This document shows positions 58,173 through 64,000 of a DNA stretch of 64,000 bases, in pieces. The stretch lies in contig JAAZOM010000006.1 of assembly GCA_012797775.1 (NCBI GenBank), positions 12,815 to 76,814 of the forward strand. The letters are read 5' to 3'. The DNA is from Candidatus Kuenenbacteria bacterium. Its GTDB lineage: Bacteria > Patescibacteriota > Patescibacteriia > UBA2196 > GWA2-42-15. Position 1 is the stretch's first letter. The number at the start of each line of letters is the position of its first letter. The notes beneath the pieces are model-generated. The model was not told where the DNA came from. It saw only the letters and a program-made list of their open reading frames with translations, and made no database searches. A program made the translations under genes and the position numbers.

Positions 58173-58360
58173 ATTTTGATGTGTTCCTATTCTAACACAA
58201 TTAAAGCACCTTTTCAATTCAGGATAGGGGAGTGTTTTCTCTTTTGACTTTTGTCAAAATTTATGCTACAATATAATTATATCACAAATGCTAATATTGG
58301 CGTTTGTCTAAAAGGCCATTAAAGGCCAAAAAATAAAAATAAAAACTAAAATATAAAGAT

Positions 58361-61300
58361 ATGCCTAGTCTTTACAAAAACAGGAAACTGTTTGTCGCTA
58401 TTTTTCTATTGTCAGTGGTACTACTTGGTGCCGCTTTTTTAATTCCTGAAAAAAAGCAGGGGATGGTGCTAGGAGAGACTACAGCTGACCCTACCATCTC
58501 TGCTCTCACTATTAGCAATATCACCGCCACATCGGCCAAAATCACCTGGACCACGAGTGACCCGATGACCACCGTTCTTACCTATTATGTTGCTGGCACT
58601 AATAATATAAAAATTGCTTATGGTGCCGGTGCTTCTTTTAGTAATACTCATGAGGTTAATTTGACTGGACTTGCACCAAACACCAGCTACCATCTTTTTG
58701 CCGAATCAGAAGATTCTGACGAGTATTATACCCTGAATGCCTATGGTGATTTTAAAACGTTAACAAGCGCCCCCGCCGCCAGCGATGCTTTGGCCTTTAC
58801 CAAAGAACCGTCCGTCGTCGTTACTAGTTCCTCAGCTACGCTTACTTGGACTACCAACATGGAGGCTACCCACTTGGTAAAATACAAGACCAACTCAGAA
58901 ACCACTTACCGCCAGGCCTATCTTTCTGGTCAGTCCTCTACCCACACTATTTCTATCACCTCCCTCACTCCCAATACCATCTATAATTATATTGTTGAAT
59001 CAGAAGAGCAAGGTGATCGTGGTTTTATTTCCAAGAGTGGGTCATTTACCACCTCAGCTGGTTCGCTCACTCCTACGATCTCCGAGCCCAAAGTTGCCAA
59101 CCTCAGTGCTACCTCAGCCAAGATTTATTGGACCAGCAACGTACCCATGAGTACTGAGATAAGGTATGCCAAGGATGGCACCACCAGCTATACCTATGAT
59201 TCCATCGATTGGGAAGATGAGAGGGAGTGGGGCGTTGATCACGAAATAACGTTAAGCGGTCTCTTACCTGGCACTAAATATAATTTTTACGCCGGTGGCG
59301 AGGATGGTCGCACCTCTATTGAAAAAGTGGGATCCTTCCAGACTTTATCTGCCTCTCCTAGTTTTTCCAGTCTGGTTGTTCAAAGTATCACTACCACCAT
59401 CAGCACGCCAACAGCCAATCAATTGGTCCCACTTACTATTGGTGTAAAAAATAATGATAATATCAATGCTCTTACCAACGTGCCCATCGAGATAAAAGTC
59501 AATGGCTTGGCCATTTGCAGCGGCACTGTTATGCCTCGGATCTCTCCCAGCGCAACTGGTTATGCTGCTTGCAACTGGACTCCGACAGCTAGTGGTTCTC
59601 ATACCATTACCGCTTCTATCTCTGTTGGGGGCTCGGTTATTTCCACAAAGAATGTGACTTTTACCGTGGTTGGTAGTTCTGCTTACGTCACCCTGACCAC
59701 TAGCCCCTCTACTGTGGCCGTAGGCCAGAAAGTCATTTTGACTGGCAAGATTACTGGGGAACACACTTTTCAGATAGCTCAGTTCAAAGAATTATATAAT
59801 GATCCGACCCCAGATAAGGTTATTTGTGATACGACTACCAAAAATAGCACCGGTTTATACACATGCGAGTGGACACCCAAAACAGCCGGCGACTACCAAT
59901 TAGCCTTTAGAGTAAACTATGATGATGCCTTAACTGCTACAGCCAACTACGCCGTAACCGCCGCCAGTGTTACTCCCACCTACGCTTGGGTCGAAGGTGC
60001 GTGGGGATCTTGTAATGCCAATGGCACCCAATCAAGAACTGTTGTCTGTAGAAAAACAGAAGGTACTTCAGTTACCGATGTTGAGGAAAGATATTGTGCC
60101 AATGCCGGTGCCAAACCAGCTACGACTCAGGTCTGCAGTAAATTATCTATTTTAAGTATCACCACCACCAAGACCAGTATTCTCCCCAATGAGGTTATTC
60201 CCCTAAGTATTGCCATTAAGAATAGCGATCAGATAAACCCTTATACTAATATTTTATTGGAATTAAAAAGTGGGTCAGCCGTTATTTGCAACCCAACCAT
60301 TTCAAGGGTCTCTGCCGGCGTCACTGGCTATCAAACTTGCAACTGGACTCCGACAGCTAGTGGTTCTCATACCATTACCGCTTCTATCTCTGTTGGAGGC
60401 TCGGTTATTTCCACAAAGAATGTGAATTTTACCGTGGTTAACTCCACCACTAGTTATGTTACTTTGGGAGTTAGCCCCACCACCGTGGCGGTCGGCCAGA
60501 CTGTTGTTCTAGGCGGTAATATTATTGGCGACCACACCTTCACTATTGCTCAATTCAAAGTCCTAAAAGACGGCAATGATACTATTTTGTGCGAAACCAG
60601 AAATAAATCCAGCAACAATTCTTACGCTTGTAGCTGGACTCCAACAACCGCCGGTACTCATCAGTTAGTTTTTCGGGTTAATTATAGTGATCAATTGACT
60701 GCCACGACGAACTACACTGTGACCGCCGCCAGCGTTACTACCACCTACGCCTGGGCCGAAGGTGCGTGGGGTCCTTGCAATAATGGCACTCAGGTCAGAA
60801 CCGTATCTTGTAAAAAAACAGAAGGCACGACTGTCACCACGGTCATTGATAACTATTGTGTCAATGCCGGTGCCAAACCAAACACGACGCAAGGTTGTAC
60901 TTTGGGCGCGACGGCTGTCACACTTTCTGCCACTCCTACGACCGCGGCCATCGACACAAAAGTCGTCCTGACTGGGACCATAACTGGTACTCATGATTTC
61001 TATTGGGCTGAATTTAAAGATAACAAAAAATATCCGATACCAGATGATGTTCTTTGCAGCGTAAAAGAAAACGATGCTGATATCTATACCTGTGAGTGGA
61101 TACCCAAAACCGCCGGCAGTCACGAACTGGTTTTTAGGGTGAATTCGGATCCTGATCTGACAGCGACTCTTTTCTTTACCGTCACCGGTTCAAACTTAGC
61201 TACTTACTCCTGGTACTCCGGTGCCCCTCTTGGTGCCTGTACCGGAGGTAGTCAGACCGTTACTGTCTACTGCAAAGATTCTAATGGTGCTAGGGCTGAT

Positions 61301-63349
61301 GACTCCAAATGTATTGTTGCCAATGCCGGTGCCAAACCAGCTACGACACAAAGTTGCAGTAATATTACTTTTGCCTGGGGTGAACCTAGCGCCTGGGGTG
61401 TTTGCACTGATGGTAATCAAACAAGAACTGTCGTCTGTAAAAAAATAGAAGGTACGACTGTCACCGACGTTAATGATAGTTTCTGCCCTCCTGCTACCAA
61501 GCCAGTCACATCGCAGTCTTGTATATCTGATGAACCCGACCTTACCTTTACCGCCTTTTCCGTCAGCTTGAACAATGGTGGTGTTAGCGGCACAAAAACC
61601 AGAACTGTAAGATGCCTAGATAGTAATGGCGATGTTATTGCTGATGCTTTGTGTCTTGGCCCTAAGCCAAAAGAAGTAGACAGTTGTCAAAATAATTCTC
61701 TATCCTTTGAGCTATTTGAGTTTTTTATTTATTCTGAAGATGGGGAGGAACTGCTGGTTTTTAGAGGTGTCTTACCTTCTATAATAGATGAAAGGATGGA
61801 CATGTTTTTCTTTATCGATGACCATAAAAGTGAATGGCTGTCGACTATTGATAGGACCCTTTTTTTTGAATCTACTACTGAAGGAGTAAGGTCATTTTTT
61901 GCTGATGGTTTTGATCCATTTACTAATGGTGACCATGTTTTTAAGGTAAGAGTCTGTAGTCAAAACAACCCCACTTTTTGTTTTGAAGAAGAAAGATTTT
62001 ATAATATTGGAGGAGAAAAATCAGGAAACTCTTGGGAAACGTCGTTTTGGCAAACGCAAGCTTGTTCCGCCGGTACTGGCGCTAGCTCTCTGACTTTGGT
62101 TCCAGCTATCCAAAATATTGGCACCGTCGCCGTTTCTACGCCTTTCAATATCAAAGTAGAAGTCAGCATAAATGATGACCCCATCGCCGGCTCCGAGGAA
62201 ACGTTCACAGTTACTGATGGTTTTGCTCCGGGCTTTGGCAATTATTTGACCCACATTTATAATAAATATATTTTTGATGATCCGGGCAACTATGTTATTA
62301 AGCTCACTATGTTAGATGTTGCCGGTGAAACCAATACTGCCAACAACAGCATCACTAGTAATTTGGCCGTTTCTCCTGATAATAATATTGTTATCTCCAA
62401 TTTGCGGGTTTCCGATATCACCAGCACTTCGGCTACTGTCAATTTCAGCACCAACATCGCTACCAAAGGCGCGGTTTGGTATGGTACCACTGATACGATT
62501 CAGGGTCGCAATTTTAGAGCCTATGATGGTGGTAGCCATGAGGCATATCAAACAATTACACCGAGCATGATTCACCAGATTCGACTTGCCAACTTGGCCC
62601 CCGATACCACTTATTATTATCGTGGCGACGCCCTTGTCATCGCCGATCAGGTCGCGGAAACCGCTTCATATAGTTTCAAAACAAAGGCATTGGAGACTTA
62701 TTCTTGGGTTAATGTCGGTTGGTCAGATTGTGTTGATGGAAAACAAGAGTTAATGGTTGAGTGCCGCAATCAATCTGGTTCCAAAGTATCTGACAGCCAG
62801 TGCACTGGCACAAAGCCATCTGACAGTCGCGATTGTGAAATTTCTGATAATGCGACAGGCGAACGGCTCGCCGGCCGCTTACTTCTAGCGGCTGAAGACC
62901 ATGGTCGCGTCTATTATATTTACCCGGAAGATTATAAAAAATATGAAGTAACCTTTGGTAATGTCATGAAACTTTTTCAGGATTTATCTTTGGGTATTAG
63001 TAATAGTGATCTAAACAAAATTCTCATCAACCCCAATGCCGTGAGTGTGGACAAAGACAGTGACGGTGATGGCTATAATGACAAATCAGAAGTGACCAAT
63101 GGCTACAATCCATATCTAGCTTCTGACCCAGCCCATCGTGGCAATGACAAGGTTCAAGTTGATACTGTCTTGAGCAACCGTTTAATCGGCAGGTTATTGC
63201 TCCAAGTCGAGGATCGTGGTCGTATCTGGTATGTGGATCAAGAGGCCAAACGTTGGGAAGTCACCTGGGAAAATGTCATGAATTTATTCACATCTCTTTC
63301 ATTAGGTACTAATAATGATGATCTAGCAAGGATACAAAGTGGCAACTAA
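58361..63349 (+). CDS. Giant secreted repeat protein (1662 aa). It combines Fn3-like domains, repeated Ig-like plus thrombospondin-type-1-like Cys modules, and a C-terminal tandem repeat.
   Basis: N-terminal signal/TM segment. Three Fn3-like units (ITATSAKITWTT...LTGLAPNTSY). Five W..W..C...Q.R.V.C...C...KP...Q.C modules (for example AWVEGAWGSCNANGTQSRTVVCRK...YCANAGAKPATTQVC). An internal roughly 88-bp DNA repeat at 59570-59657 and 60338-60425 is almost identical. Two C-terminal RLxGRLLLxxEDxGR modules. Confidence 0.8.
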   Translation: MPSLYKNRKLFVAIFLLSVVLLGAAFLIPEKKQGMVLGETTADPTISALTISNITATSAKITWTTSDPMTTVLTYYVAGTNNIKIAYGAGASFSNTHEVNLTGLAPNTSYHLFAESEDSDEYYTLNAYGDFKTLTSAPAASDALAFTKEPSVVVTSSSATLTWTTNMEATHLVKYKTNSETTYRQAYLSGQSSTHTISITSLTPNTIYNYIVESEEQGDRGFISKSGSFTTSAGSLTPTISEPKVANLSATSAKIYWTSNVPMSTEIRYAKDGTTSYTYDSIDWEDEREWGVDHEITLSGLLPGTKYNFYAGGEDGRTSIEKVGSFQTLSASPSFSSLVVQSITTTISTPTANQLVPLTIGVKNNDNINALTNVPIEIKVNGLAICSGTVMPRISPSATGYAACNWTPTASGSHTITASISVGGSVISTKNVTFTVVGSSAYVTLTTSPSTVAVGQKVILTGKITGEHTFQIAQFKELYNDPTPDKVICDTTTKNSTGLYTCEWTPKTAGDYQLAFRVNYDDALTATANYAVTAASVTPTYAWVEGAWGSCNANGTQSRTVVCRKTEGTSVTDVEERYCANAGAKPATTQVCSKLSILSITTTKTSILPNEVIPLSIAIKNSDQINPYTNILLELKSGSAVICNPTISRVSAGVTGYQTCNWTPTASGSHTITASISVGGSVISTKNVNFTVVNSTTSYVTLGVSPTTVAVGQTVVLGGNIIGDHTFTIAQFKVLKDGNDTILCETRNKSSNNSYACSWTPTTAGTHQLVFRVNYSDQLTATTNYTVTAASVTTTYAWAEGAWGPCNNGTQVRTVSCKKTEGTTVTTVIDNYCVNAGAKPNTTQGCTLGATAVTLSATPTTAAIDTKVVLTGTITGTHDFYWAEFKDNKKYPIPDDVLCSVKENDADIYTCEWIPKTAGSHELVFRVNSDPDLTATLFFTVTGSNLATYSWYSGAPLGACTGGSQTVTVYCKDSNGARADDSKCIVANAGAKPATTQSCSNITFAWGEPSAWGVCTDGNQTRTVVCKKIEGTTVTDVNDSFCPPATKPVTSQSCISDEPDLTFTAFSVSLNNGGVSGTKTRTVRCLDSNGDVIADALCLGPKPKEVDSCQNNSLSFELFEFFIYSEDGEELLVFRGVLPSIIDERMDMFFFIDDHKSEWLSTIDRTLFFESTTEGVRSFFADGFDPFTNGDHVFKVRVCSQNNPTFCFEEERFYNIGGEKSGNSWETSFWQTQACSAGTGASSLTLVPAIQNIGTVAVSTPFNIKVEVSINDDPIAGSEETFTVTDGFAPGFGNYLTHIYNKYIFDDPGNYVIKLTMLDVAGETNTANNSITSNLAVSPDNNIVISNLRVSDITSTSATVNFSTNIATKGAVWYGTTDTIQGRNFRAYDGGSHEAYQTITPSMIHQIRLANLAPDTTYYYRGDALVIADQVAETASYSFKTKALETYSWVNVGWSDCVDGKQELMVECRNQSGSKVSDSQCTGTKPSDSRDCEISDNATGERLAGRLLLAAEDHGRVYYIYPEDYKKYEVTFGNVMKLFQDLSLGISNSDLNKILINPNAVSVDKDSDGDGYNDKSEVTNGYNPYLASDPAHRGNDKVQVDTVLSNRLIGRLLLQVEDRGRIWYVDQEAKRWEVTWENVMNLFTSLSLGTNNDDLARIQSGN

Positions 63350-63363
63350 CATTAGATTTTTCA

Positions 63364-63393
63364 AACACCGTTCCTATCAGGAACGGTGTTTGC
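63364..63393 (+). terminator. Intrinsic terminator.
   Basis: caccgttcc-tatca-ggaacggtg hairpin followed by a T-rich stretch. Confidence 0.6.
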
Positions 63394-63699
63394 ATTTTAT
63401 GAAAAATCATCGAGGCTAAATAAATATTGCGCGAGTATATCTTTGGCCAGCTTCTATGTTAGAACTGCATTATTTTTTTATAGCTAGGCATTGAACTTGG
63501 GTAATAGGCATTTGACTTTTTTAGGAGATTATGCTATACTTCAATTAGGTAATAAAGAACTTAAAGGCTCTTTTTAATTATGGTCTTAAAGCAAGAATTT
63601 TATATTATTAAATATTCTGTTAGCTCTCATTCACCCTGAAGCCGTATTTTTGTACGGTTTTTTTATTTATAAACTAATTTTTGTAATAATATGTACCGC

Positions 63700-64000
63700 G
63701 GAAAAACAAAGTCAAAATTTCAAAAAATAGCCGCCCTGGTTATTCTAGCCACTCTCTTTACGCCGTTTTTTAGTCTAGAAGCAGAGGCCGCCACCCTCGA
63801 TCTTACCCCCCGCATTTCTTATTGGGCGGGTAAAGTCAACCAGCACACCGAAGACGGAGTCTGGAAAACAGATCCCGATGGTGCTTCTGGCGCCAACATT
63901 GCCATGTTGACCTATTGCAAAAAATGGTATCCCAATACCGTCAGCGTTGAGTATTATGGGGAAACATCAGAACCAGTCTGGAGAGCTGCTGGCAACACTG
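63700..64000 (+). CDS. Secreted protein, 5' part only; the gene continues past the window end.
   Basis: ATG at 63700 followed by signal peptide MYRGKTKSKFQKIAALVILATLFTPFFSLEAEAA. The ORF is open to the window end. Confidence 0.5.

Follow-up and report, generated by a model that had tools for sequence, protein, structure and literature searches.

Thrombospondin type-1 repeats (TSRs) are textbook adhesion modules of animals and apicomplexans, and in eukaryotic proteins such as thrombospondin-1 (TSP-1), TRAP/CSP, mindin and BAI1 they bind sulfated glycans, lipopolysaccharide (LPS) and proteins. A canonical repeat is closed by three disulfides, namely Cys1-Cys5, Cys2-Cys6 and Cys3-Cys4. The TSR adhesins of apicomplexans, which are eukaryotic as well, are glycosylated by POFUT2 and DPY19. 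For the subtype collected in Pfam as PF19030 (TSP1_ADAMTS), the loss of one tryptophan and the replacement of one arginine by a hydrophobic residue were published (bioRxiv 10.1101/779553), and a review treats the TSR as an animal-derived domain (PMC3417536). Our full-text literature searches found no paper on bacterial TSRs; the only text found that links thrombospondin to the Candidate Phyla Radiation (CPR) concerns type-3 repeats, and TSRs are not mentioned in a survey of bacterial fibrillar adhesins (Monzon, Lafita and Bateman 2021, PMC8286594). Here we report on a window, that is, the whole stretch of 64,000 nt of Candidatus Kuenenbacteria DNA that was analysed, in which an open reading frame (ORF) at 58361-63349 on the forward strand (the strand of every feature given below) encodes a 1662-aa protein with six TSRs of a four-cysteine kind. 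The protein is probably a large, exported, cell-surface protein resembling the fibrillar adhesins. A reading made earlier from the sequence alone (the sequence-only reading) had given the same length and coordinates, which were reproduced, and had supposed an organism with a minimal genome, which agrees with a CPR bacterium: the product matches the NCBI entry 'hypothetical protein GYA54_01000 [Candidatus Kuenenbacteria bacterium]' at 100% identity.

The identity of the cysteine-bearing modules is the key issue. In the Pfam scan of the whole protein, TSP1_ADAMTS was matched in six stretches with E=4.2e-28 and 97.8 bits, and each of the six modules, called T1 to T6 in order, passes the PF19030 gathering score of 23.8 bits when scanned singly (34.1, 29.2, 24.4, 33.4, 26.1 and 24.5 bits), while no rival family in Pfam matches any of them in these single scans. 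The module pattern W-x4-W-x2-C...Q-x-R-x-V-x-C agrees with the published definition of PF19030 (bioRxiv 10.1101/779553), with two tryptophans and Q-x-R-x-V-x-C present in each of T1, T2 and T4. What is more, a profile of the six modules reaches the solved TSR of THSD7A (8oxr) with E=0.0018, and a 60-sequence profile, made of the window modules and their relatives, reaches it with E=6.5e-15, also matches the TSRs of TSP-1 (7yyk, 3r6b, 1lsl) at 1e-7 to 9e-6, and picks up those of the circumsporozoite protein and BAI1. Convergence instead of homology is rejected on the per-module scores together with the profile matches to solved TSRs. Judged by these sequence comparisons, the modules are true TSRs of the ADAMTS/THSD7A subtype. 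The sequence-only reading had gone no further than a resemblance to the eukaryotic repeat, to be given up if an unrelated bacterial family scored better in a Pfam scan; the profile statistics go beyond a look-alike, and no unrelated bacterial family outscores TSP1_ADAMTS. Its count of five modules has to be raised to six, including the truncated T5.

The canonical form has six cysteines and three disulfides. The modules of this protein are a reduced variant of it, with four cysteines each (three in T5), where Cys2, which belongs to the CSxxCG motif, and Cys6 are absent. To place this variant in the family, we took a census of cysteines in 511 family domains from the best 150 matches of an exhaustive profile search against 1.84 billion cluster representatives. 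Both Cys2 and Cys6 are found in 365 domains and neither in 87, the remaining 59 being mixed (28 + 31); the coupling of the two positions has an odds ratio of 37 with p=1.6e-46, a p value which is only indicative since domains within one protein are not independent. The two cysteines are thus gained or lost together, as expected if they form one disulfide as in canonical TSRs. The four-cysteine modules would retain two disulfides, Cys1-Cys5 and Cys3-Cys4, together with the strands that bear tryptophan and arginine. In the stretch from T5 onward (aa 1076-1236, 61586-62068), the cysteines of T5 are Cys1085, Cys1098 and Cys1109; the next domain contains Cys1199 and Cys1207, and Cys1235 lies just beyond it. 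As T5 lacks Cys1, extra cysteines occur downstream and the total in the whole protein is even (36), Cys1109 may pair outside its own module and so join T5 to the domain at aa 1114-1232.

The domain order was drawn from Pfam, local hidden Markov models and direct reading of the sequence. Besides PF19030, the whole-protein Pfam scan gave Pur_ac_phosph_N (6.2e-24, four stretches), fn3 (3e-12, four stretches), Filamin (46.1 bits), CARDB (22.2 bits, slightly below the cutoff of 22.7) and a weak bacterial TSP3 repeat. At the N-terminus (aa 1-33, 58361-58459), a basic KNRK followed by a hydrophobic span of 19 residues (aa 10-28) was read from the sequence as a putative export signal or signal-anchor, and this segment would direct Sec export, whether it is cleaved or stays as an anchor. 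Then come three beta-sandwich domains of the Fn3/purple-acid-phosphatase-N (PAP-N) type at aa ~44-332 (58490-59356, boundaries approximate), matched by Pfam fn3 and Pur_ac_phosph_N. They are followed by unit 1 (59372-60145), which consists of a CARDB-like domain (aa 338-437), a filamin-like immunoglobulin (Ig) domain (438-538) and T1 (540-595), and by its paralogue unit 2 (60146-60904), in which the same three recur, namely a CARDB-like domain (aa 596-694), a filamin-like Ig domain (695-793) and T2 (795-848). The third filamin-like Ig domain (aa 849-945) leads to T3 (948-1001, by PF19030) at 60905-61363, and PF19030 also places T4 (aa 1003-1057) and the N-terminally truncated T5 (~1076-1113) at 61367-61699. 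Next stands an unassigned domain of about 120 aa (aa 1114-1232, 61700-62056), rich in acidic and aromatic residues, which has no Pfam match at E<=10. A CARDB/PKD-like domain (aa 1236-1336; PKD_4 at a weak 18.2 bits) and a fourth Fn3/PAP-N domain (aa 1340-1443, the best Pur_ac_phosph_N stretch being aa 1348-1422) occupy 62066-62689, and T6 (aa 1446-1495, PF19030 at 24.5 bits) lies at 62696-62845. The protein ends in a double module (62852-63343), whose copies at aa 1498-1560 and 1604-1661 are joined by a TSP3-like DxDxDG linker at aa 1563-1590.

This order modifies the earlier picture in several respects. The three N-terminal Fn3-like domains it contained were recovered by Pfam, with a fourth at aa ~1340-1443 besides. 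Its statement that each cysteine module follows an Ig-like domain holds for T1 to T3, where the preceding domain is filamin-like, but not for the others, T4 being preceded by T3, T5 by T4, and T6 by an Fn3/PAP-N domain. Likewise, the C-terminal module is duplicated as supposed, but only the second copy, not the pair, follows the Asp-rich segment.

In all, the spacers comprise four Fn3/PAP-N, three CARDB/PKD-like and three filamin-like Ig domains, every one a beta-sandwich, so that the protein has both the export signal and the tandem beta-sandwich stalk by which fibrillar adhesins are recognised. An adhesin or host-attachment role is plausible from this architecture. In such a role the protein would be displayed at the cell surface, where the TSRs would act as the ligand-contacting elements toward a partner cell or a matrix; by analogy with eukaryotic TSRs, their likely ligands would be anionic glycoconjugates or proteins. 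No recognised adhesive head domain was found by Pfam and NCBIfam scans, and candidate parts for binding or anchoring are the TSRs, the domain spanning aa 1114-1232 and the double module at the C-terminus.

The two copies of the C-terminal module (aa ~1498-1560 and 1604-1661) are 51% identical with E=9e-21, and their motif of about 60 aa can be written GRLLLQVEDRGRIWYV...EVTW.N...LF..L.LGI.N.DL..I. The loop between them, DKDSDGDGYNDKSE, scores 23.7 bits against TSP3_bac (PF18884, cutoff 25) at aa 1566-1581. A model of the double module built by AlphaFold2 with homologues has a mean predicted local distance difference score (pLDDT) of 87.9 and a predicted template modelling score (pTM) of 0.82, and from the high pTM it would seem that the loop and both copies are packed into a single compact body. 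Homologues are found on quite different proteins: small signal-peptide proteins consist of the double module alone, for example in another Kuenenbacteria genome; in others it stands after an SH3b domain, and in one protein before PG_binding_1; and a different Kuenenbacteria-like protein fragment is 80% identical over the double module only. In a related Kuenenbacteria genome the same double module was also seen at the 3' end of a gene for a Trypsin_2 protease, out of frame with it (L005:4307-6384). The switch of frame lies near ...DNEL / TNRLRGKFLLQVQDRGRIWYV, and the sequence is identical in three independent assemblies (L005, L006, L007); a genuine frameshift or pseudogene may be the cause, or programmed frameshifting, or a sequencing error common to all three.

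By its recurrence on varied exported proteins, from a second Kuenenbacteria genome and from metagenome assemblies, the C-module of about 60 aa looks like an undescribed domain family. A unit that is carried by varied cargo proteins and found beside wall-binding domains is what one expects of modules that anchor proteins to the surface by non-covalent contacts. By this analogy the double module would most likely attach the protein to the cell wall in the same non-covalent way, and the C-terminal pair, bridged by a putative calcium-binding TSP3-like loop, would be a targeting or anchoring unit shared among proteins. If the N-terminal segment is an uncleaved membrane anchor, the double module could instead be the distal binding tip.

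Several points weigh against an adhesin of this kind. No LPXTG-type anchoring motif was seen on reading the sequence, and the proposed anchoring role of the double module is drawn solely from the domains and proteins with which it co-occurs. The C-modules have no Pfam match at E<=10, the NCBIfam scan of the whole protein is silent in that region, and the AlphaFold2 model of the double module matches no fold in the PDB. As for the TSRs, T3 has one tryptophan and no conserved arginine, T6 has no conserved arginine either, and T5, without the tryptophan strand and Cys1, matches only positions 18-56 of PF19030, so the layers of tryptophan and arginine are incomplete. A protein with 36 cysteines would require disulfide formation outside the cytoplasm. 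Finally, searches of the genome and metagenome contig collections with the Ig-TSR region returned no close orthologue.

The main rival is that the protein is a structural component of the envelope or matrix, S-layer-associated or part of a sheath, in which the TSRs serve as rigid, disulfide-stapled spacers. We consider this unlikely, though it deserves to be taken seriously: almost the whole protein consists of repeats of small domains of the stalk type, the scans found no recognised adhesive head, and a paralogue adjoins (described below), as envelope proteins often exist in several related copies. Nevertheless, the eukaryotic TSRs of thrombospondin, TRAP/CSP, properdin and BAI1 are generally known to bind ligands, a relative combines ten TSRs with the putative adhesive domain pAdhesive_15, and the unassigned aa 1114-1232 may form a head for binding. 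A surface-displayed, adhesin-like protein is thus the reading we keep.

The gene has a further property which calls for explanation. The sequence-only reading had noticed that 59570-59657 and 60338-60425 are almost identical, and in fact 87 of the 88 positions match, while the full tract, 59568-59657 against 60336-60425 by nucleotide alignment, spans 90 nt, of which a single one is mismatched, and its longest stretch of exact identity is 61 nt. The copies correspond to the last strands of the CARDB-like domains 1 (aa 403-432) and 2 (aa 659-688). They lie in units 1 and 2, which are 256 aa each and share 62.5% of amino acids and 66.9% of nucleotides; given a background identity of 67%, the probability of at least 87 matches in 88 is 2e-14. 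In windows of 15 codons, the identity at third positions is 0.3-0.5 nearly throughout the units, which are therefore near saturation at these positions outside the tract, and it rises to about 1.0 across aa 403-432 against 659-688. Since the synonymous identity is confined to this 90-nt patch, selection at the protein level is no explanation, and the simple one, to go by the nucleotide comparison, would be a short and recent intragenic gene conversion between paralogous domains. Repetitive genes for surface proteins yield short conversion tracts of this sort as a matter of course. A second and weaker tract is found between T1 and T3 (60092-60145 against 61312-61367), with 87.5% identity and an exact run of 30 nt. 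Of the two events which had been offered for the repeats, ongoing recombination is consistent with the 90-nt tract, and recent intragenic duplication is not supported, because the units themselves are old and only about 90 nt are nearly identical; the low third-position identity outside the tract speaks against a recent duplication of the whole unit.

The same tract might be suspected of being an artefact of assembly, either a chimeric join or the collapse of a longer repeat array. The source contig (ENA ERZ928041 k127_291546, 91,487 bp, with the gene at 84660-89648) comes from a short-read metagenome assembly, the relatives of the C-terminal region lie mostly on very short contigs, as if such repeat-rich genes may fragment assemblies, and no independent assembly with the tract was found, an exact 42-nt piece of it having no match in the metagenome contigs. 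However, the two copies are in frame and at homologous positions, each with diverged flanks; a collapse would delete a unit rather than make an identical patch; and the T1-T3 tract repeats the same pattern more weakly. Because the flanks are distinct and the 61-nt exact run is shorter than the assembler k of 127 (the k is taken from the contig name), a collapse is unlikely, and we give the artefact as a whole only a slight chance beside gene conversion.

With regard to the origin of the modules, their distribution in other organisms is informative. The exhaustive search matched 2080 proteins with a limit of E<=1e-3, or 686 with a limit of E<=1e-10, among which both six-cysteine and four-cysteine forms occur. 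The five top per-domain scorers (57-70 bits) are all of the four-cysteine form, and their partner domains are PG_binding_1 in two (one of them also with PKD) and PAP-N/Fn3 in one, with TSRs alone in another; nothing foreign to bacterial surface proteins is seen in four of the five. Three further proteins that were scanned carry LamG (P0110), pAdhesive_15 (P0090, the relative with ten TSRs) and TSRs alone (P0083, from Sphingomonas). In RefSeq, WP_422513524.1 of Sphingomonas sp. is already named 'thrombospondin type-1 domain-containing protein', and the precomputed Pfam list for the Kuenenbacteria protein itself already contains PF19030; one matching representative comes from a euglenid transcriptome. 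A locus scan of prokaryote-only genomes, with an alignment of three sequences as the query, gave four loci, with TSRs in Gracilibacteria, Saccharibacteria, Bdellovibrionales and gammaproteobacterial metagenome-assembled genomes (MAGs). The Gracilibacteria and Bdellovibrionales MAG proteins (L001:1540-3282 and L002:610-4494) have six-cysteine and four-cysteine TSRs in tandem on one polypeptide, and the gammaproteobacterial locus (L003) has classical short TSRs of the thrombospondin type (SAWSACSATCGGGTQTRTC...). A search with the full-length protein was dominated by Fn3/PAP-N matches, and a word-indexed search for homologues with the six-module profile gave a single match from 25 scored candidates. 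Bacterial TSRs are genuine and numerous, annotation pipelines already name them as such, and the protein described here joins a kind which databases annotate and which, as far as we found, appears in no study.

One more TSR lies next door. A paralogous gene for a surface protein starts at 63691 and is cut by the end of the window at 64000 (L008:15331-16827 on the source contig). Its product has at least 499 aa and a signal peptide, and the contig ends inside the gene, 1.8 kb past the stop codon of the 1662-aa ORF. It contains one four-cysteine TSR at aa 266-316, with 63.5 bits against the profile of the window modules, and two CARDB/PKD-like domains which are 42-46% identical to aa 1242-1340 of its larger neighbour. 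At aa 40-103 of this product (63808-63999; L008:15448-15678; ISYWAGKVNQHTEDGVWKTDPDG...YCKKWYPNT) there is also a sub-threshold match to APP_N, the heparin-binding domain of the amyloid precursor, at 18.6-20.2 bits against a cutoff of 22.1. Perhaps the product has here a second extracellular domain of the animal type, or the match may be due to chance.

One could also propose that the TSRs were recently transferred from a eukaryote, and that the protein acts as an effector of a 'eukaryote-like' kind on a eukaryotic host. The TSR is known overwhelmingly from animals and apicomplexans (PMC3417536), the best match among solved structures is human THSD7A, and the weak APP_N match in the downstream gene is to an animal-type domain. 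Against this, the closest members of the four-cysteine subfamily carry bacterial partners (PG_binding_1, PKD), the subfamily extends over several bacterial phyla, and the two cysteine forms are mixed within single bacterial proteins. The GC content of the gene is 0.44, the same as that of the remaining window, so that it is no compositional outlier, its internal units are old, and on the source contig it has housekeeping neighbours (among them L25, TsaE, GreA, and a ClpC-type ATPase in opposite orientation). A recent eukaryotic origin is therefore very improbable in our view.

Least credible of all is programmed variation, meaning phase or antigenic variation or the template and variable repeats of a diversity-generating retroelement, which two near-identical copies of about 90 nt inside a surface-protein gene and a single mismatch of G against A might suggest, but which meets with an ORF free of simple-sequence tracts (the A-rich leader at 58328-58361 was all that Tandem Repeats Finder gave), no convincing inverted repeats around the promoter-like site at 58244-58272, no Pfam match to a reverse transcriptase or recombinase in any gene called over 10 kb upstream and over the 1.8 kb that the contig extends downstream, and two copies that are both coding and at homologous sites of paralogous domains, with only one of many adenines differing. 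The likeness to phase-variable adhesins which had been drawn from the repeats is thereby dropped, and a diversity-generating retroelement was rejected on the lack of a reverse-transcriptase match among the genes called in that interval and on the nature of the copies, coding, homologous in position and one base different.

As to the expression of the gene, a promoter-like site of the sigma-70 type (TTGACT, a 17-nt spacer and TACAAT, with an extended -10 TG) was found 5' of the ORF at 58244-58272 by a consensus scan, with 10 of 12 matches and as a pattern only. Downstream, 3' of the stop codon, a terminator-like hairpin is located at 63362-63392, its 14-bp stem being followed by a T-rich stretch. 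With promoter-like and terminator-like sites of its own, the gene looks like a separate transcription unit. No obvious Shine-Dalgarno sequence is seen ahead of the start codon at 58361. The A-rich run at 58328-58361, in which AAAAAT occurs about five times, stands directly before the start codon.

The significance of these results lies mainly in TSRs as candidate attachment modules of CPR bacteria, together with a C-terminal unit outside the families of Pfam and NCBIfam. An ultra-small and host-dependent CPR bacterium has here a large surface protein with six TSRs, beside a further TSR in the product of the adjoining gene, which makes the protein a concrete candidate for the molecules that attach CPR cells to their partners. 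The double module may be a surface-targeting signal of general use among Kuenenbacteria and CPR bacteria related to them. A compact TSR with two putative disulfides offers a subject for structural work and an entry to the question of where TSRs originated; the related cluster representatives, both bacterial and eukaryotic, number in the thousands. Going further, one may speculate that the four-cysteine modules are a large prokaryotic lineage of TSRs, undescribed in the literature that can be searched, present in several CPR groups and in predatory and other bacteria, interconverting with the six-cysteine form within bacterial proteins, and recognising the envelope of the host in episymbiotic CPR bacteria; we regard this wide claim as doubtful at present. 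If it were true, the TSR would not be an animal invention, and the binding of glycans and LPS in animal innate immunity by mindin and BAI1 would echo an older recognition between bacterial cells.

It remains to compare the protein with the systems already described. Apicomplexan TRAP and the circumsporozoite alpha-TSR have in common with it that a surface protein carries a few TSRs, the attachment of a small parasitic cell to the surface of a host being a feature of the apicomplexan side; in the alignment with the family profile, however, only the N-terminal WSxCSxTCGxG part of the circumsporozoite TSR is covered. For TSR2 and TSR3 of TSP-1 (1LSL) the alignment with the family profile runs from Cys1 to Cys6, with what appears to be the same order of tryptophan strand, arginine strand and third strand, and the positions of Cys1-Cys5 and Cys3-Cys4 are kept in the Kuenenbacteria modules; whereas canonical TSP-1 has WxxWxxW, RxRxR and three disulfides, the bacterial modules would have reduced layers and two disulfides.

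The ADAMTS-type TSR (PF19030; THSD7A, PDB 8OXR) is nearer. The alignment with THSD7A spans the entire Kuenenbacteria module and shares W-x4-W-x2-C, Q-x-R-x-V-x-C, a further cysteine and KP...Q-x-C; PF19030 and the bacterial modules alike fall one tryptophan short of classical TSRs, and in both a hydrophobic residue has replaced one arginine. They differ in that the Kuenenbacteria modules have four cysteines only, with one of the three disulfides absent, and lack the O-fucosylation motif CxxS/TCG. The neighbouring domains are also different, being CARDB, filamin-like and Fn3 domains in a bacterial host rather than metalloprotease or other domains of the animal extracellular matrix. Among the bacterial TSR proteins of RefSeq, WP_422513524.1 is likewise secreted and has many PF19030 modules, mostly without Cys2. 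However, that Sphingomonas protein is a nearly pure array of at least 20 TSRs, while in the Kuenenbacteria protein the TSRs are interleaved with Ig-like and Fn3 domains and the C-terminus is a double module without Pfam or NCBIfam family. Finally, in comparison with the fibrillar adhesins surveyed before (PMC8286594), the protein is without a recognised adhesive head and without LPXTG or another known anchor, but it shares with them the great length, the export signal, the stalk of beta-sandwich domains and the internal DNA repeats.

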